Below are positions 6,427-25,418 of a DNA stretch of 64,000 bases, piece by piece; the stretch's first letter is position 1; each line of letters starts with the position of its first letter. The notes below the pieces were generated by a model. The model saw only the letters and a program-made list of their open reading frames with translations, searched no databases and was not told the origin of the DNA. The stretch lies in the NCBI GenBank assembly GCA_964621085.1, contig CAZUKY010000005.1, positions 4,991-68,990 on the forward strand. Reading direction: 5' to 3'. The translations under genes were made by a program, and so were the position numbers. Source of the DNA: an uncultured Gammaproteobacteria bacterium (GTDB lineage Bacteria; Patescibacteriota; Patescibacteriia; JACQRZ01).

Positions 6427-6455
6427 TTGACTTTCCCCCCTTATTCGTCTATACT
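6427..6455 (+). promoter_or_regulatory. Sigma70-like promoter for the zinc-ribbon gene
   Basis: TTGACT (6427-6432), 17-nt spacer, TATACT (6450-6455). Confidence 0.55.
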
Positions 6456-6546: not shown

Positions 6547-6792
6547 ATGTACGACCAGAACAATCAGGGTCCTGCCCCGATGCGTCAGCTGTTTGACGTC
6601 ACGTCGCTCAACCTGACCTGCACCGAGTGCGGAGCGGCTATCGAAAAGCTGCCGTTCCAACCGACGGAAAAGGAAGACGGGACCTACGGCCGCATCTATT
6701 GCCGCGACTGTAACCGCAAGCGCCGCGAAAAGTTCGGCGGCCCGCGCAGCTTCGGTGGCCCGCGCCGCGACTACAATCAGGAAGCTGCATAA
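6547..6792 (+). CDS. Small zinc-ribbon protein (CxxC...CxxC)
   Basis: 81-aa ORF with CTEC...CRDC pairs and a Gly/Arg-rich tail; SD AGGTGA upstream. Confidence 0.6.
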   Translation: MYDQNNQGPAPMRQLFDVTSLNLTCTECGAAIEKLPFQPTEKEDGTYGRIYCRDCNRKRREKFGGPRSFGGPRRDYNQEAA

Positions 6793-7295
6793 ATTTCCTG
6801 AAACACGAAAAGACCCCGGTCATCCGGGGTCTTTGTCGTTAAAACGTTTTTCAGTTCTCTTCAGACCCTCAAGAACGCTATTTCCAAAAATAAAAACCCT
6901 CTTGCAGACGGCCATGGGGGGCCATAACCGTCTAAAAGAGGGTGGCATGCACAATCCCTATCCCACTCAGAACGCGCATCCGCATCGCTCTTCGCATGGC
7001 GAATGAAAATCCTGAGTGGGACGAGGAAAACCTCATCCCAGGGGTCTCTTCTTGAAAGAGCGGTGAGCGGGATCGTGCCAAGGACGAACAAAATGCCGAC
7101 TCTGACCACCGTTCCCCCCACTACGATGATGAGTTTAGCATTGGTTGATTGGTATGTCAATGGGTTTTTTGACAATTTACCAGAGAAATTGCTATTTTCT
7201 TTTTATTTATAACAAAAATATACTCTTTTTCGACGAAAAAATATCGTATTTTTGTCTTCCTGAGCCTATAAAAAATCCGGTTGTCCACAGAACTA

Positions 7296-7324
7296 TTGAC
7301 AAGCTCTAGCTATTTATCTATACT
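7296..7324 (+). promoter_or_regulatory. Near-consensus sigma70 promoter
   Basis: TTGACA (7296-7301), 17 nt, TATACT (7319-7324); no + strand protein gene downstream. Confidence 0.6.
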
Positions 7325-7331
7325 GCTATAT

Positions 7332-7790
7332 TATTCCCGAACTTCCGGAAGGTTGGGGTTTTTGCAGTAAGCTGCACTCAGCAATAAGGAACTGAAGGGA
7401 ATAAGGGGTGAGTGCGCGCCCCGGTGAGGCGTGCATAGCAAAAAAACGAAAGGAGGAACCCTATGAGCGGGAAGATCAGGCTTAGCGCCTACAAGCCCGG
7501 GCCAGATCGCCGATGCCACGAGAGTGGTGGCGGCGGAGGCCTGTAGCCCCTCCCGCGGGTGTCTGTCGTCGATAACGTCCCCGGTTGTCGATCATTTCCA
7601 AGCAGTTGGTACACGCCTTACAGCGTGCACCAGTAACTTCGGCTAAGACAGCCATACGTTACGAAACAGAAGGGCGCATCAAGCCCAACATGAGACCATC
7701 GCGACCCTAGGGCGACACCTGCGGCCCGAGGCTCATGCATCCCTTGGCCTCGGTGAGAGAGAACCTCTCCACCGGGGCCTATTTACATTC
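7332..7790 (+). ncRNA. Candidate structured noncoding transcript, unassigned class
   Basis: About 460 nt GC-rich with no ORF of 60 aa or more on the sense strand and multiple hairpins. Carries a consensus SD plus a 27-codon ORF (7463-7546). Convergent with the TrmB-like gene. Confidence 0.3.
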
Positions 7791-7798
7791 TAAAATAC

Positions 7799-8545
7799 TT
7801 AATCCGTAGGAAGATCCTTGCTGCCTTGCAGCGCAAGATCGAAAAGAAGGCGGAATGTATTTGCAAGCGTCTCACTTTCAATGAGAATCGTGTACATCTT
7901 TCCTTGGAACGTCGTAATGTCGATCTTCTTTCCGTAGACGCTAATACTGGACTTAAAGCCGCCCTTACTGTCCGGCAAAAAATAGCGGTTTGATTTTGCC
8001 GTCTTACCGGCTGGGGCGCCGGAATAAATGCCGTAAAATTCGGTACGGGCCTTCTTCAAGTGCTCCTGCAACGATTGCACGTCCTTTTTATCAAGAGTGG
8101 ACAAGAGCGCCTCTAAGTCGGTCAGTTCGTAGCAGGTCTTTTCCTGCAAAAATTCCATATCCGTAATATATGCGTGCACTCCTTCTTTCCCTTCGATCAC
8201 CTTTACGGTCGGGCGTTCCCCTCCCTGAAGAAGGTTAAGTTCCGGCATCGCGCGCTCGATATCTGACGCTTTATCCCGAAATTCGAGCTCTTTGCGCTTG
8301 ACGTATGAGTACAGTTTTTCCGGCGGCTCGGCGATATAATAACGTTTTTTGCCCTTGGTAACCGTAGACATGAGACCCTTTTCTACCAACGTCTCGATGG
8401 CATTGTAGATCGTCTGGCGCGAGAGTCGCGTCTTTTTTGTAATATCGATCACGGTGCTGGGGCCGGTCTCCAGCACATTTAGATATGTCTTCGTCTCGCC
8501 ATCGGAAAATCCCAGCGAGCGAAAGATTGGCGTCATGTCTGTCAT
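7799..8545 (-). CDS. TrmB-family transcriptional regulator (paralog 1)
   Basis: N-terminal winged-HTH ([41 protein letters not shown]); start overlaps the ruvB stop (ATGA). Confidence 0.8.
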
Positions 8546-9582: not shown

Positions 9583-9732
9583 AGCTTGATCCCCTCAATC
9601 CTATCAAGAAGCCGCGAGAAGCTCAAATAGCGGTTCTATTTTTGAAAAACAAAAACCCTTTTTGACGCGATCTCTGACGAGGTCAGGTCAAAAAGGGTGC
9701 GGAAAATTTTTCCGCGAAGCATAAAAGAACGA

Positions 9733-9996
9733 TCAGGGCCCCAGGAGCTCGAGGAGTTCGAGCGTGACGCGCGCGAAGAACTCGTCTTCGAACGCAGCGT
9801 CGTCCTCGATATCATCGAGTGGAATCTCATAGGAGACTTTGAGGACTGCCACCGCCATCATGACACGCACGAAGCAGGCTTCGCACGCCATGAAGTGATG
9901 GATCGCCTCATCCGAGACGTCCTGTGGCGGGGTCGGGGAGTTGACGAAGACCGCCTGAGCGATCTCGGTCACCTCGAAGCTGCTGAGAGTCGACAT
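9733..9996 (-). CDS. Hypothetical small acidic protein (87 aa)
   Basis: ATG with SD GGAGGG at 8-nt spacing; an overlapping + strand ORF (9697-10167, GTG start) is the alternative. Confidence 0.3.
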   Translation of the reverse strand: MSTLSSFEVTEIAQAVFVNSPTPPQDVSDEAIHHFMACEACFVRVMMAVAVLKVSYEIPLDDIEDDAAFEDEFFARVTLELLELLGP

Positions 9997-10208
9997 GAGA
10001 GAACCTCCCTTTCGCGGACCTTCGAGGCAAGATATCGCGCGACACCTTCAACCCCTTTCGGAAACTCGCAGATATTCGGATCTCCGAAAGAGGGGGAACA
10101 CGTTTCCATGTTCCCGGTCGCCGAGCGCAATCGCATTGCGATACTCGAGGCGACGCCCGTTTTTTAACGAGGTATATGCGGTCCTCGTGGCGATGCGATA
10201 TCGCCAAA

Positions 10209-10564
10209 TGGTGGAGATGGCGGGAGTCGAACCCGCGTGTCTCAGAGTTTTTCGTACCATCGTCTACGAACGTGTCTCCTTTCTTCAAAGGAGCAAAGCA
10301 GCGCTGCTATGGATCAGCGCATCCCCCTTCAGAAATTCGCTCTGGAGGGAACGGCTCAGCACGTTATCTTGAGATCTGACCGCCGTGCCAGCAATCAGAT
10401 CCGCATCCTCTCCTTAACGTCATTTTGGCGTACGAGGTGCTCCACCAATGACGGGGTGGCTTAGGCCGCCGCGGTTGTTTTTTTGAGCCTGATTTTACGG
10501 GATCGGACTCACTCCCGGCTCGCAGATGATACGCCTCGCTCAAGAGCGAAACCGTTACATCCCC
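10209..10564 (-). ncRNA. ssrA: tmRNA (SsrA), one-piece, CCA encoded
   Basis: 5' GGGGATGTAACGGTTTCG and 3' GCGGGTTCGACTCCCGCCATCTCCACCA; acceptor stem with the G3:U70 alanine identity pair; T-arm GGTTCGACTCC. Confidence 0.85.
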
Positions 10565-12302: not shown

Positions 12303-12506
12303 TCACCGGTGCTTCCCCGATCCTGATGGCGTCAGGATGAAGAAGCGCGGCATCTTCCGCTCTGCCTTGTTGGCAACGGCTACCCATCGCCGGTACTCCG
12401 CCTCGGTCATGCCCAGCTGGTTGAGGGCCTCTGAGAGCGTTTCCGGGGCGACGAGCTTCCCCGTCCACGACCGCCCGACGACGGCTTTGGCTTGGCTATT
12501 GGTCAT
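12303..12506 (-). CDS. Hypothetical small protein (67 aa), first gene of the island operon
   Basis: SD AAAGGAG 8 nt upstream of ATG; high-GC composition like the downstream 313-aa gene. Confidence 0.5.
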   Translation of the reverse strand: MTNSQAKAVVGRSWTGKLVAPETLSEALNQLGMTEAEYRRWVAVANKAERKMPRFFILTPSGSGKHR

Positions 12507-12757
12507 TGGGCATGCTCCTTTCGTATCTGCCCCCGATCGAATCTCCTCCTCAAGGACTCGATTCTGTCAACCAACATCCGGCAGTCTAGCATAGTTGAGA
12601 TATTATGTCAAGTATTTACTTTAAATAATTTATAGTAATCTTTAATTTAATTATAAATATAACGAAAAAAATATGACATATAGTCATATTATTTCTTTAT
12701 AATACAATTTCATACTGGGGAATATTCCTCAATATGTCATTTTCTTCTAACGGATAC

Positions 12758-12786
12758 TTGACAATATCGAACTGATCTGCTATGCT
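12758..12786 (+). promoter_or_regulatory. Near-consensus sigma70 promoter
   Basis: TTGACA (12758-12763), 17 nt, TATGCT (12781-12786), at the end of an AT-rich tract. Confidence 0.55.
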
Positions 12787-12792
12787 TATACG

Positions 12793-13116
12793 GTCACTGG
12801 ATAGCGGTATTCGCCAAATCACCGGCGACACCGCTGAATGCGAGCCCAGAAAGGAGGAACTTTATGGGCTCTTCCGAAGGGTAGGGGTAAATAACCCCTA
12901 GTCTCTCCGAACGCGCTCCTCTCGCGTTTCGGGTACAGAGATCCACGTACGACACATCGGTCGAGAAATGCCGGAGAACTTCGGCATGCCGAGCGTCATG
13001 CTCACTACTCGACCGCAAACTCGGTTTCCGTTCCACTGCAGAGAGGAGGAATGCAATGGGCTGTGGGAACTGATCCCCTTTGGGGGCGCCAAGCTGCCGC
13101 GTTAGTGCAGCTTTTT
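12793..13116 (+). ncRNA. Candidate structured noncoding transcript, unassigned class
   Basis: About 320 nt with nested hairpins, two SD-ATGGGCT micro-ORFs (6 and 5 codons) and a hairpin + T5 terminator; convergent with TrmB paralog 2. Confidence 0.3.
13091..13116. terminator. Intrinsic terminator, likely bidirectional
   Basis: AAGCTGC-loop-GCAGCTT followed by TTTTT on the + strand; lies just past the TrmB2 stop on the minus strand. Confidence 0.6.
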
Positions 13117-13137
13117 ACTTTGTGCAATAAGTGCGGA

Positions 13138-13890
13138 TTAGTCCGAGGGAAATTTCTTTGCGGTCTCTGTTGCAAGTTTAAAAAGAATGCGGAGGGTTTG
13201 CGCCAGGGCTTCATTCTCAATAATCACGGATTGGATCCCTCCCTTTACCGATACGAGAGAAATCTTATTTTTATAGATAAGCACGTCTGTCCCGAAGTTC
13301 CCGTATTCTTTTGGCAAGTAGTGGCGAATCGAGCGCGCACTTCTGCCCTTTGGCGCACCCGTAAGCAGGCCATGGAAAGAAATGGTCTTGTTTTCTAAAA
13401 GTTTTTTTCGGATCAGGGAAACATCTGTTTCGTCAAAAATGGCATAAATGGCATCGAGGTCGGCGATCTCGTAAATGATTTCATTGTCGGTGGTTGACGC
13501 CATGTCCATGAATACCTGCATAGCACCCTCCTTGCCGTCATACACGCGGACCGATGTTTGTTGGGTGGCCTTTTTAAGCTTCAACTCAGGAAGAAGCTCT
13601 TTCAAATCTGACTCGAACTGCGACAGCTCGTGCGCCTTGCGGCTGATATATTGCCCGATTTTTTCGGGATCGTCGACGACGTAGTATTTTTTCTTTCCTC
13701 GTGTAACACTGGACATCAGTCCTTTATTCGCCAAAGACTCTACGGCAACATATGTCGCTTGCCGAGAGAGTTGCGTGTATTTGGCAAGATCAATAATACT
13801 GGTAGTCCCTCTTTCAAGGGCAACAAGATACGTCTTAATCTCACTTTCGAGAAATCCGAGCGACTTGAGTAGAGAGTGAATGGTCTGCAT
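13138..13890 (-). CDS. TrmB-family transcriptional regulator (paralog 2)
   Basis: Aligns along its full length with the 7799-8545 product (same HTH, same C-terminal domain). Confidence 0.8.
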   Translation of the reverse strand: MQTIHSLLKSLGFLESEIKTYLVALERGTTSIIDLAKYTQLSRQATYVAVESLANKGLMSSVTRGKKKYYVVDDPEKIGQYISRKAHELSQFESDLKELLPELKLKKATQQTSVRVYDGKEGAMQVFMDMASTTDNEIIYEIADLDAIYAIFDETDVSLIRKKLLENKTISFHGLLTGAPKGRSARSIRHYLPKEYGNFGTDVLIYKNKISLVSVKGGIQSVIIENEALAQTLRILFKLATETAKKFPSD

Positions 13891-13922: not shown

Positions 13923-14369
13923 TCAGGAAGCATAAAGAATCTCAAATGTGATATGGATCGCGTCGGTGGGCACGATATCGCGGACTCGCTCGGGCCACTC
14001 GATAAACGTTACGGTGTCCGGACTGCCCAGATAATCCACTGCGCCGATCGCGGCGAGTTCGGCTCCTGACGAGAGCCGGTACGCATCGATGTGGCACAGG
14101 GAAAGTCGCTCCCCACGGTAGGTTTTCATGAGAACAAATGTCGGGCTTGTGACGGTCTCGTGCACGCCCAGGGCATGAGCGCATGATTGGACAAAGGTCG
14201 TCTTGCCCGATCCTAGATTTCCGGAAAGCGCGACGATCTCTCCGCCCCGGAGCGTCGAAACGAAACTGCGCGCGAGCGCAACAGTATCCTGAAGCGACGC
14301 AGCCTCGTGCGCCTTCTCTTCGCCGGCGTGCTTGATCGTAATAAGCCGCTTATGCGGATGTTTTTCCAT
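13923..14369 (-). CDS. tsaE: tRNA t6A37 biosynthesis ATPase TsaE
   Basis: P-loop GNLGSGKTT; YjeE-like size; overlaps the tsaD stop. Confidence 0.85.
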   Translation of the reverse strand: MEKHPHKRLITIKHAGEEKAHEAASLQDTVALARSFVSTLRGGEIVALSGNLGSGKTTFVQSCAHALGVHETVTSPTFVLMKTYRGERLSLCHIDAYRLSSGAELAAIGAVDYLGSPDTVTFIEWPERVRDIVPTDAIHITFEILYAS

Positions 14370-15414
14370 ACAGCGTCCAGTTAGGGTCTGCAGAAAGTTT
14401 TTCCCACGGCGTAAAAAGTTTCTTCTCTGCGCGGAAATACCCGGCCAATGCGATCATTACCGCATTATCCGTACAGTAGCCAAGACTCGGATAATAATAC
14501 GAGACTCCGGGCAGAGTGCGAGTCACCGCTTCCCCAAGCGCAGCGCGCAGCTGCCGATTCGCAACCACGCCGCCCCCGAGCACGATCGAACGAACGCGCT
14601 CTCGTCCGGCCGCGCGGATCGTCTTTGCAACCAGAACATCGGTGACCGCACTCTCGAACTCGGCACAGATGTCGGCAATCGCTTTCTTGGTAAACTTTTT
14701 TTCTTTTTTCATACGTTCGACAAGATAGAGCACGGCGGTCTTGAGGCCGCTAAAGCTGAACGCGTCGTCGCCCGAGTCGATCATCGGCCGAGGCAAGTGA
14801 AAGACGCCCGGACGCCCCTTTTGCGCCCAGCGGGAAATCTCGGGACCGCCGGGGTAGCCGAGCCCCATGATCTTTGCCGCCTTGTCAAACGCCTCTCCTG
14901 CCGCGTCGTCGCGGGTCGCTCCCAGCAGCCGATACTTCCCATGAGATTTCATGTGGTTCAGCTCTGTATGGCCGCCTGAGACCACCAGCGCCAGCGCGGG
15001 AAAAGCGATGTCAGAGTGCTCCATCCAGTTTGCAATGATATGGCCCTCGATATGATTGACGGACACGAGCGGCTTTTTCCAAAGATAGGCAAGCGTCCGC
15101 GCCGTCTCGACGCCGACCAACAGCGACGTGACCAGTCCCGGACCGGCAGTTACCGCGATCACATCTGGTTTCACCCCACCAAGCGCCTTCTCGATGACCG
15201 GAACGATCTTGAGAATGTGATTGCGCGCGGCACCCTCAGGCACGACCCCGCCGGTTTTCGCATGAATCTTCACCTGCGATGCCACAACGTTTGACCGCAA
15301 GACAAAACGCCCACGCTTCACTTCCAACAGCGCGGCAGCTGTCTCGTCACACGAGCTTTCAATGCCAAGGATTTTCATACATATAAAGCAGTACGAGTGT
15401 ATCAGTGTTTGCAT
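14350..15414 (-). CDS. tsaD: tRNA N6-adenosine threonylcarbamoyltransferase TsaD
   Basis: Kae1/Gcp family; MKILGIESSCDETAAAL start motif (true start probably the internal Met at about 15378). Confidence 0.9.
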   Translation of the reverse strand: MQTLIHSYCFICMKILGIESSCDETAAALLEVKRGRFVLRSNVVASQVKIHAKTGGVVPEGAARNHILKIVPVIEKALGGVKPDVIAVTAGPGLVTSLLVGVETARTLAYLWKKPLVSVNHIEGHIIANWMEHSDIAFPALALVVSGGHTELNHMKSHGKYRLLGATRDDAAGEAFDKAAKIMGLGYPGGPEISRWAQKGRPGVFHLPRPMIDSGDDAFSFSGLKTAVLYLVERMKKEKKFTKKAIADICAEFESAVTDVLVAKTIRAAGRERVRSIVLGGGVVANRQLRAALGEAVTRTLPGVSYYYPSLGYCTDNAVMIALAGYFRAEKKLFTPWEKLSADPNWTLYGKTSA

Positions 15415-24671: not shown

Positions 24672-25418
24672 TTAGAAGAAAAATTGCTTCCAAAACAAGC
24701 GGCGCATGACACTGAATGAACGCATAAGCGAGGAGTCGACGCGCTTGAGCGAGGAGGCGTCCTTGCCAAGCGCATAGTCGGTGTAGCGAATCGTCACCGG
24801 CACCTCGGCAACCCGTAGTTTGTGCCGCCCGATCTCATGAATGATTTCCGAGGCATGGCCCTTGCGCCGCTCGCGAATCCGGATCGTCTGCGCCGCAGCG
24901 CGAGAAAGCGCGCGAAACCCGTTATGCGCATCCGAAAGTTTGACACCGGAAAAGAGCCAGGTGAAGAGAATCGCCATGCGTAAGAAAACGCGCCGCTCGA
25001 AGCGAATATTTTCCGCAGATCCCAAGAAGCGCGAGCCCAACACAACATCCGCTCTTCGCCTCACGATCGGCTCGATGAGCGCAGGGATATCCTCAAGGCG
25101 ATGCTGTCCGTCGGCATCGAAATGAATGATGATCTCAGCACCCCGCCTCAGCGCATATCGCATGCCGGTCTCCAGCGCCGCGCCCTGGTCGCGATTGATC
25201 GCGTGACGCACCACATGCGCGCCGGCAGCATGCGCAGCCTCTCTGGTCGCATCCTTCGAACAGTCGTCAACAACCACAATAGAAGGGAAAAGTGCGCGGA
25301 CAGATGTGACAACCTCCCCTATCGCCTTCGCCTCATTATATGCAGGAATGACAATCCAGATCTTGTCCCGCTCCATAGAGTCACAAACACACATGAAATC
25401 GCTTCTGCAGTCTAGCAT
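24672..25418 (-). CDS. Family 2 glycosyltransferase (polyprenyl-phosphate sugar synthase-like)
   Basis: IVIPAYNEA, VVDDCSKD and DADGQH motifs; start probably the Met at about 25376. Confidence 0.85.
   Translation of the reverse strand: MLDCRSDFMCVCDSMERDKIWIVIPAYNEAKAIGEVVTSVRALFPSIVVVDDCSKDATREAAHAAGAHVVRHAINRDQGAALETGMRYALRRGAEIIIHFDADGQHRLEDIPALIEPIVRRRADVVLGSRFLGSAENIRFERRVFLRMAILFTWLFSGVKLSDAHNGFRALSRAAAQTIRIRERRKGHASEIIHEIGRHKLRVAEVPVTIRYTDYALGKDASSLKRVDSSLMRSFSVMRRLFWKQFFF

Follow-up and report, generated by a model that had tools for sequence, protein, structure and literature searches.

The DNA analysed here, called the window, is a stretch of 64,000 nucleotides from contig CAZUKY010000005.1 (assembly GCA_964621085.1, positions 4,991 to 68,990, forward strand) of an uncultured member of the Patescibacteriota. 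It encodes two TrmB-like transcription regulators on the - strand, TrmB2 (13138-13890) and TrmB1 (7799-8545), each of which is faced by a convergent, predicted RNA on the + strand. The subject of this report is the RNA opposite TrmB2, termed R2 (12758-13117 including its promoter), with its two very short open reading frames (micro-ORFs); the RNA opposite TrmB1, termed R1 (7296-7790), is considered alongside it.

R2 is preceded by the near-consensus promoter described in an earlier note on this DNA: TTGACA (12758-12763), a 17-nt spacer and TATGCT (12781-12786), on the + strand, with 10 of 12 consensus matches and an extended TG. The RNA, its ends placed from promoter and terminator, would run from about 12793 to 13117 on the + strand. 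Its length of about 325 nt agrees with the 320 nt or so first estimated, as does its end in a hairpin followed by five T residues, an intrinsic terminator of sequence AGCUGC-N9-GCAGCU plus U5 (13092-13116, -9.4 kcal/mol). The region has a G+C content of 56-59%, set within spacer sequence of about 24%, and folds with a minimum free energy (MFE) of -138 kcal/mol (z = -5.0 versus shuffled sequences). Nested helices were part of the original description and are found in the MFE structure, where CGGTCGAG (12958-12965) pairs with CTCGACCG (13008-13015) and encloses ATGCCG-GAGAACTT-CGGCAT; this central helix has no sequence conservation among relatives.

Two near-identical start elements of the type AAGGAGG-N6-ATGGGCT are present in R2, followed by the 6- and 5-codon ORFs that had been noticed before. 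The first element, GAAAGGAGGAACTTTATGGGCT (12849-12870), contains a Shine-Dalgarno (SD) sequence, AAGGAGG (SD1, 12851-12857), that fits the family profile described below, and opens micro-ORF1, ATG GGC TCT TCC GAA GGG TAG (12864-12884, MGSSEG). The second, GAGAGGAGGAATGCAATGGGCT (13041-13062), contains GAGGAGG (SD2, 13043-13049), predicted to lie in an apical loop with an unpaired probability of 1.0, and opens micro-ORF2, ATG GGC TGT GGG AAC TGA (13056-13073, MGCGN). Between the two, a hairpin at 12907-12932 displays a loop, CUCCUCU (12916-12922), that is complementary to SD2 and constitutes an internal element resembling an anti-SD sequence. Another small hairpin, CCCC-UUU-GGGG (13075-13085), begins 1 nt past the stop codon of ORF2; the terminator stem follows that stop codon after 18 nt, and the stop codon of TrmB2 on the opposite strand is 22 nt from the terminator. 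The terminator had been regarded as shared with the TrmB stop, which is right as to its position, but the TrmB strand has no U-tract at this hairpin.

The public annotation of the same contig calls no gene across the R2 region. Three longer ORFs were considered as hidden proteins there (12794-13036 and 12898-13092 on the - strand, 12968-13105 on the + strand) and were set aside because they vary in position and length among relatives and because the public gene call is empty.

TrmB2 is a protein of 250 amino acids with a winged helix-turn-helix (wHTH) domain, a coiled coil and a C-terminal domain, and TrmB1 has 248 amino acids. They are paralogs, as had been proposed: both have the TrmB-family wHTH, and they are similar in length and 40% identical. 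TrmB2 matches Pfam PF01978 (TrmB wHTH) with E 7e-10, at 39 bits compared with 54 bits for TrmB1 and a cut-off of 25.6 bits. An AlphaFold2 model of TrmB2 (mean predicted local distance difference test score 91) finds as its best Foldseek match 5bpd, TrmBL2, over its full length (E 5e-12, 17% identity), and TrmB2 is accordingly predicted to have a TrmBL2-like fold. With TrmBL2, a chromatin and repressor protein of Thermococcales, TrmB2 thus shares the TrmB wHTH and the predicted fold; it differs in being a bacterial protein, in its low identity and in lying far under the cut-offs of the NCBIfam TrmB and TrmBL1 equivalogs (21-31 bits versus 500-650), and the archaeal TrmBL2 has no known associated RNA. 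TrmB2, at 250 amino acids, is without the sugar-binding effector domain at the C-terminus of TrmB and TrmBL1, which are proteins of about 340 amino acids, as is TrmBL2, its best full-length structural match. A candidate third TrmB paralog of the window (24672-25418) is a family 2 glycosyltransferase.

R1 (7331-7790, + strand, about 460 nt, MFE z = -6.0) is convergent with TrmB1 and starts from the promoter TTGACA-17-TATACT (7296-7324, + strand, 11 of 12 matches). Its start element, AAGGAGGAACCCTATGAGC (7450-7468), contains the SD sequence AAGGAGG (7450-7456) and opens a single ORF of 27 codons (7463-7546, + strand, MSGKIRLSAYKPGPDRRCHESGGGGGL) that ends in GGGGGL. The earlier note took R1 and R2 for two instances of one arrangement with a closely related start element. 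The promoter and the SD-ATG element are indeed present in R1, but its ORF is not a micro-ORF and no second SD-AUG element was found in R1. Conservation between the two RNAs, in sequence or in structure, does not extend beyond the SD-ATG element. R1 therefore resembles the family of R2 in promoter, orientation and SD-AUG and departs from it in having one ORF of 27 codons; it is a divergent or atypical member of that family, not an identical second instance.

Conservation of the RNA-regulator unit

Bacteria of the candidate phyla radiation (CPR, or Patescibacteria) account for a large share of bacterial diversity, and their gene regulation is almost unstudied; they have few regulators and no described small RNAs (sRNAs) of the R2 type. 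TrmB-like homologs were found in Candidatus Uhrbacteria and in other metagenome-assembled genomes of Patescibacteria, and 129 loci around such homologs were gathered from GTDB genomes, JGI metagenomes and Logan/ENA assemblies, with five extra loci (L130-L134) used for context only. A unit was counted wherever an ORF of at most six sense codons with a strong SD sequence lay on the convergent strand within 800 nt.

At least one such micro-ORF is present in 49 of the 55 non-redundant loci whose regulator is at least 38% identical to TrmB2. Their density is 82 in 41 kb (2.0 per kb) in this zone versus 7 in 549 kb (0.013 per kb) elsewhere in the same loci, a local enrichment of about 150-fold. None of 38 loci of a distant TrmB subfamily (at most 30% identical) has the unit. 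Most of the related loci are nearer to TrmB1 than to TrmB2, and the sub-clade of TrmB2 consists of TrmB2 itself with L044, L046/L047, L049, L050 and L051. In the closest relatives, a GC-rich RNA with two SD-ATGGG micro-ORFs is likewise flanked by a strong convergent promoter and by a terminator set against the TrmB stop codon. The RNA promoter has the form TTGACA-17-(TG)nTAnnnT almost everywhere, and about 40 related loci have an equivalent TTGACA-17-TAnnnT promoter.

The genes beyond the regulator differ from locus to locus (tsaDE, ruvB, a gene for a 275-amino-acid protein of unknown function, peptidase M20, dnaN and others), which implies that the RNA-regulator pair specifically is what has been kept. 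The housekeeping operon that the earlier note considered part of the arrangement is thus not a conserved trait. Its wider proposal, that a regulator and a convergent RNA form a functional module and are not together by chance, is upheld by the persistence of the pair among changing neighbours and by the signatures of selection on the micro-ORFs; the search of other genomes that it called for found the arrangement in relatives. The functions that it offered as examples, a ribosome-loading RNA or a cis-antisense partner of the regulator, are both hypothetical, and the loci give mixed evidence for an overlap of the transcripts at their 3' ends (see below).

When the bodies of R1 and R2 were compared by blastn and nhmmer with the 129 related loci and with each other, only the SD-ATG element was common, and the family can be recognised only through its architecture and its micro-ORFs. 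A model of the element that uses sequence alone and derives from 46 instances, all in other genomes, was scanned over both strands of the window. Its three best matches were, in order, R2-ORF2 (E = 0.004), the SD-ATG of R1, and R2-ORF1; such a ranking by a model derived from other genomes indicates that these elements are more than chance.

Known RNA families do not account for R2. Against Rfam 15 at the gathering threshold, the window yielded only transfer-messenger RNA (tmRNA) and tRNAs; at E<=10, R2 and R1 gave only noise (best 20.7 bits, versus a 48-bit cut-off), and there was no match in 18 related loci or in the L044 region. RNase P, 6S, signal recognition particle and Y RNAs, riboswitches and large ornate RNAs were excluded on the same grounds for R2, R1 and the relatives. 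Full-text searches of the literature found no description of an R2-type RNA or of TrmB-linked micro-ORFs in CPR bacteria.

As far as sequence comparison can tell, the family signature is a strong sigma-70 promoter, a GC-rich folded RNA of 250-800 nt and an intrinsic terminator right next to the stop codon of a convergent TrmBL2-like gene, the RNA usually carrying two micro-ORFs with optimal start signals that consist of AAGGAGG, 5-7 nt, AUG, 2-5 more codons and a stop. R2 has every one of these features of what we propose as a family of TrmBL2-linked micro-ORF RNAs. It appears to be a real, independently transcribed RNA, and its family, in Uhrbacteria-like CPR bacteria, appears to be previously undescribed. 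The RNA gene is also genetically linked, one to one, to a single subfamily of TrmBL2-like regulators, even after duplication of the regulator. The unit is widely conserved and easily recognised by its very strong promoter, its two minimal reading frames and its regulator of archaeal type, and since promoter, SD sequence and terminator are all canonical, it is directly testable in vitro.

Signatures of decoding in the micro-ORFs

A profile of 87 elements has AAGGAGG at positions -13 to -7, AUG, a variable second codon and then GGN GGN. The third positions of the Gly codons are spread over A, C and U, with GGG being rare (8 of 150). The profile thus has a three-base periodicity, with the consensus Met-x-Gly-Gly-stop, a modal length of four codons and a last residue that is mostly Gly. 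Without any filter for length, an in-frame stop follows within six codons at 80% of the 95 SD+ATG sites of the zone, the stops peaking at 3-5 codons (74 of 95 sites), compared with 13% in the +2 frame control.

In close relatives, the flanking sequences are essentially randomised and the ORFs are kept, with differences that are mostly synonymous. L049 and L050 encode the same MGSGS with GGA AGC GGT TCT versus GGT AGT GGA AGC, four synonymous changes that include a TCT/AGC switch; L060 and L061 encode MEGG with three synonymous changes, and L002/L006 and L011/L079 are further close pairs. Over independent close pairs there are about 16 synonymous and 4 non-synonymous codon changes. The two ORFs of one RNA also resemble each other: their lengths are correlated (r = 0.82, permutation p < 5e-5), and their last residues are identical in 17 of 26 RNAs where 10.3 would be expected, as in MAGGR/MQGGR, MFGGG/MQGGG and MGGI/MGGGI. 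Kinship among the loci inflates all of these statistics somewhat, although their direction is consistent.

Because of the periodicity, the early stops, the synonymous divergence and the matching of ORF1 with ORF2, the micro-ORFs look decoded by ribosomes and under selection. A purely structural RNA motif is disfavoured, as it would not predict periodicity, an early in-frame stop or synonymous divergence. If the frames are translated, the lower size limit for ORFs under purifying selection moves to 3-5 codons, and such micro-ORFs are invisible to every gene caller.

Possible modes of action and known systems

Access to the start sites may be controlled within the RNA. A perfect CCUCC(U):AGGAGG hairpin sequesters SD1 in many TrmB1-type RNAs, and in L002, L006, L055, L062, L071, L080 and L088 an upstream ORF of 17-25 codons with its own SD sequence spans the anti-SD of SD1; in L088 this ORF is in frame with micro-ORF1. 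Such a layout is the classic design for translational coupling, and translation of the upstream ORF may be relayed to micro-ORF1. The R2 clade conserves a UCCUCCU block, which lies in a hairpin loop past ORF1 (12916-12922 in the window) and is the only consensus partner for SD2 according to RNAalifold, which for 5-6 sequences predicted only local hairpins in addition to this pairing of SD2 with the anti-SD.

At the 3' end, the stop codon of ORF2 is 4-19 nt from the terminator stem in at least 17 relatives, the short-type members, and in the window. Long-type members have a conserved structured insert, sometimes with a second, bidirectional terminator, after ORF2. No terminator signal precedes ORF2 on the TrmB strand in the window or in 29 of 44 loci, and the mRNA of the regulator in those 29 loci probably runs antisense into the SD2-ORF2 region.

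The reading that we place first, tentatively and at slightly less than an even chance, is that of a ribosome-engaging regulatory RNA coupled to the TrmB-like gene by 3' overlap, by control of its promoter, or by both. The RNA would act through the engagement of ribosomes, not through a conserved fold. Ribosomes would load at start sites of very high strength and, still tethered to the SD sequence, finish 3-6 codons further on; in many members, that SD sequence would be masked by an internal CCUCC or unmasked by translation of an upstream ORF. As the end of ORF2 is 0-19 nt from a hairpin or terminator stem in short-type members, including the window, its occupancy by ribosomes may set the termination and stability of the RNA. 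Experiments have shown this for mccA, the 7-codon ORF of the microcin C operon: there, a bound ribosome triggers termination, makes the transcript more stable and permits reiterative translation (PMC4231749, PMC6495379). Where the TrmB mRNA is without a terminator of its own before ORF2, as in roughly two thirds of the loci, the transcripts would overlap 3'-to-3', and thereby the state of the RNA would feed onto the TrmB-like gene. The TrmB-like protein, in turn, would probably control the promoter of the RNA or the pair of divergent promoters described in the next section. The Gly-Gly-stop context may adjust how long terminating ribosomes dwell; that a C-terminal glycine favours the trapping of terminating ribosomes by apidaecin (PMC7544508) is a lead only. 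The net result would be a feedback unit that reports translational status (the availability of ribosomes, Gly-tRNA or release factors) to a transcription regulator. If the unit does sense the status of ribosomes, tRNA or termination, it would represent a new wiring of translation to transcription, in cells with only tens of ribosomes.

Several observations weigh against this reading. CCUCC is no commoner across the family than composition-matched pentamers, and the anti-SD elements are features of single clades only. Predicted exposure of SD sequences in loops is uniform in the window and not in the family, where the mean unpaired probability is 0.29. A conserved helix between an upstream C-rich tract and the G-rich ORF was set aside as unsupported, cognate pairs being no better than non-cognate ones (p = 0.14, 0.19). 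In 15 of 44 loci, RNA and TrmB are separated by an insulating terminator, either bidirectional or a second one, and hence 3' overlap cannot be a universal mechanism. In the window itself, a ribosome terminating on ORF2 would reach only the small hairpin at 13075-13085 and not the terminator stem, and the ends of the R2 transcript are deduced from the positions of promoter and terminator. The control of the RNA promoter by the regulator is purely something that we infer. Finally, the conservation of the amino acids at codon 2 and at the last position fits a peptide product at least equally well.

A peptide product is the alternative that survives best, possible if rather unlikely. R2 would then be a short mRNA, expressed at a high level, whose products are two peptides of three to six residues that serve as ligands or signals for the TrmBL2-like regulator, either inside the cell or after export, with a logic akin to that of an RRNPP or mccA cassette. 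Synonymous-only change in close pairs, including the switch between six-fold serine codons, is what such a product would leave behind, as is a second residue that survives synonymous changes of its codon (GAA/GAG, CAA/CAG). So are two peptides per RNA that are matched in length and C-terminus, and a strict one-to-one linkage to one regulator subfamily that survives duplication. The information in these peptides is very low, however, at 2-7 residues, and variants of about 25 codons occur in R1 and L003; signal sequence, TPR-type receptor, conserved nearby modifying enzyme and dedicated exporter are all absent; and TrmBL2-type proteins are without the sugar-binding domain of TrmB and have no known ligand pocket. 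A more specific form of the idea, unlikely in our estimation, is that peptides of the type fMet-x-Gly-Gly (with N-terminal formylmethionine) are the cognate intracellular ligands of the regulator, in a tetrapeptide/receptor circuit by which an ultra-small CPR cell would gauge its translational capacity. If this were true, frames of 3-6 codons would be genuine genes and the smallest conserved protein-coding genes so far.

The two kinds of cassette with which a peptide product invites comparison resemble the R2 family only in part. The layout of micro-ORF and terminator recalls mccA (PMC4231749), in which, likewise, a strong SD sequence leads a very short ORF close to an intrinsic terminator, on a short and abundant RNA from a strong promoter. 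The ORFs of the R2 family have 3-6 codons, occur as two per RNA and mostly end in Gly, whereas mccA has 7 codons and ends in Asn, and past the terminator the R2 family has the gene of a transcription regulator, on the other strand. No Pfam match for an MccB/ThiF-like (E1-like adenylating) protein was found among the neighbours in the window and nine annotated related loci, other biosynthetic genes are likewise missing nearby, and with neither MccB nor an Asn-terminal heptapeptide the R2 family is not an mcc system. RRNPP-type cassettes (Rgg/SHP, PlcR/PapR, AimR/AimP) similarly place a tiny peptide gene beside one regulator, sometimes convergently, and paralogous cassettes coexist within one genome. 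In contrast to these, the regulator here has a TrmBL2-like wHTH and no tetratricopeptide repeats (TPR), and the peptides of 3-6 residues have no pro-peptide or secretion signal; lacking both receptor and pro-peptide, the R2 family is not RRNPP. Overall, it appears to work most like leader-peptide and minigene devices while being a member of none of these groups.

Minigenes of the phage lambda bar type are an established example of short ORFs that tie up tRNA as peptidyl-tRNA, inhibiting growth through drop-off in a way that Pth relieves. Their sequence features are similar to those of the R2 family: ORFs of 2-5 codons, a strong SD sequence and a last sense codon whose identity is conserved. 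By analogy, heavy translation of the micro-ORFs might act as a brake, tying up ribosomes and/or the tRNA of the last codon (mostly tRNA-Gly) as peptidyl-tRNA, with the TrmB-like protein restraining the strong promoter, and with a role in growth or dormancy control or in defence. The very strong SD sequences, the ORFs of 3-5 codons whose last sense codons are conserved and matched between ORF1 and ORF2, the consensus promoter and the general minigene literature are in keeping with a brake, yet we judge it improbable. The unit, unlike the bar minigenes, is chromosomal, widely conserved and linked to a regulator. Its neighbours are core genes (tsaDE, ruvB, the dnaA/dnaN region, tmRNA), and it looks like a product of vertical inheritance and not like part of an island. 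GGG, the Gly codon of the drop-off-prone NGG type, is avoided, and the unit is linked neither to pth nor to tRNA-Gly genes, the nearby tRNAs being those for Ala, Leu, Glu and others.

Attenuation by a leader peptide that responds to Gly, or to another amino acid, is quite improbable. Scarcity of Gly-tRNA would cause stalling at the Gly codons and alter termination, for which the two consecutive Gly codons, the most conserved coding feature, and the position of ORF2 next to the terminator would be suited; the polycysteine short ORFs of mycobacteria offer a precedent (bioRxiv 10.1101/834739). Leader-peptide attenuators (trp, erm/cat-type, polycysteine ORFs) share with the R2 family a short SD-led ORF before an intrinsic terminator and repeated codons, and several R2-family members also share the masking by an anti-SD and the unmasking by an upstream ORF. 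The R2 family differs from them in that the RNA has a gene to itself, which converges on the partner gene. The C-rich and G-rich tracts around ORF2 could pair with each other, at duplex energies that do not differ between cognate and non-cognate pairs (p = 0.14). Beyond the terminator, no structural gene on the sense strand was found in the window or in relatives, only the antisense of TrmB, tsaE and tsaD, and for want of a downstream sense gene the family is not a classical attenuator. Many members, moreover, are free of Gly (MWN, MLN, MIN, MSS, MAF). To our knowledge, CPR bacteria lack the biosynthetic operons that are usually under such control.

An untranslated, structured sRNA, in which GGAGG...AUGGG would be a structural or protein-binding motif (CsrA-like GGA sites, or mimics that would titrate the 3' end of 16S rRNA) and the ORFs incidental, is highly improbable. 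The strong predicted folding (z = -5 to -6), the position of both window SD sequences in loops and a small hairpin that can form around the AUG, by pairing of the preceding CC with the downstream GG, would suit such an RNA. It leaves unexplained the three-base periodicity, the stops at codons 4-6 compared with 13% in the control frame and the synonymous-only divergence, and the proposed helices have no covariation in an RNA whose body is not conserved. CsrB/RsmZ sponge RNAs have at least seven GGA sites versus the two or three SD-type sites of the R2 family, whose display in loops is inconsistent; at only two to three sites per RNA, the family is not Csr/Rsm-like. Chance, or a non-functional intergenic sequence, is effectively refuted by the comparative data, namely the roughly 150-fold enrichment, the presence in 49 of 55 loci and the top-three ranking in the window.

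Divergent transcripts and neighbouring genes

A second promoter, TTGACA-17-TAGACT (12583-12611, - strand), diverges from that of R2 across an AT-rich spacer (12612-12757, about 24% G+C). The spacer is a candidate operator, and binding of the regulator there is inferred only. Most related loci have a divergent TTGACA promoter 125-157 nt upstream of the RNA promoter across a similar AT-rich spacer, and the divergent transcript in relatives is often free of ORFs for hundreds of bases. The layout of the divergent promoter is kept in the relatives and at both positions in the window (12583-12611 and 7132-7160): TTGACA, 17 nt and an extended -10 element, TGnTAnnnT. Some 15 nt upstream of the divergent -35 element, TGACA/TGTAC occurs a second time (TGTACA-N8-CTTGACA), possibly as a regulator site.

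The divergent promoter of R2 would serve an ORF of 67 amino acids (12303-12506, - strand) that matches no protein family. A nucleotide-level match at the equivalent position in L072 (nhmmer E 6e-4) indicates that it may be a real small protein under a shared control region. Divergent from R1 is a candidate noncoding RNA (6885-7126, - strand) with the promoter TTGACA-17-TAAACT (7160-7132) and a strong terminator near 6905-6860; a stretch of 322 nt here folds at z = -7.55. This candidate, which has neither an Rfam match nor micro-ORFs, occupies the site of the divergent, ORF-poor transcript of the relatives.

In L130 (6001-8348), two convergent TrmB-like genes flank a gap of 800 nt with two head-to-head promoters. 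The RNA of one promoter has a micro-ORF (MSGGGCG) and faces the first TrmB-like gene; that of the other, about 100 nt long, has none and faces the second. Upstream are tsaD-tsaE-ruvB, genes that are divided between the two modules of the window.

A Ro60/TROVE (Rsr) gene is located 1.2-1.4 kb past the TrmB-RNA unit in ten related loci: L044 (5260-7792), L046, L047, L048, L051, L058, L092, L102, L131 and L133. It is absent from the window. The gene lies downstream of the divergent promoter and of a leader of 600-1000 nt without credible ORFs, which has conserved hairpins, such as CUCUUUCAAGGCG...CGCCUUGAAAGAG, and is a candidate for one or more Y RNAs of CPR bacteria, with no match to the Y-RNA or YrlA models of Rfam.

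Upstream of TrmB2 are tsaE (13923-14369) and tsaD (14350-15414), both on the - strand. The earlier note placed TrmB2 last in a tsaD-tsaE operon, which is plausible but unproven: the three genes share a strand, but TrmB2 is separated from tsaE by 32 nt, and a promoter-like site with 9 of 12 matches is found at 13945-13917.

Several of the relatives' contigs (L001, L002, L004-L006, L010-L012 and L015) are titled 'uncultured Gammaproteobacteria', 'Vicinamibacterales' or 'Acutalibacteraceae' despite gene content of the CPR type, and these titles are likely placeholders or the result of mis-binning. Between the two TrmB-RNA modules of the window is a tmRNA gene (10209-10564, - strand, 103 bits), and L070 likewise has tmRNA about 1.5 kb past its module. 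Beside the tmRNA of the window is an ORF (9697-10167) with no match in Pfam or NCBIfam, although SmpB might be expected there. The window also encodes a treble-clef zinc-ribbon protein of 81 amino acids with the motif CxxC-x17-CxxC (6547-6792, + strand), whose gene is preceded by a near-consensus promoter of its own (6427-6455) and followed by a terminator that is strong and bidirectional (6809-6834).

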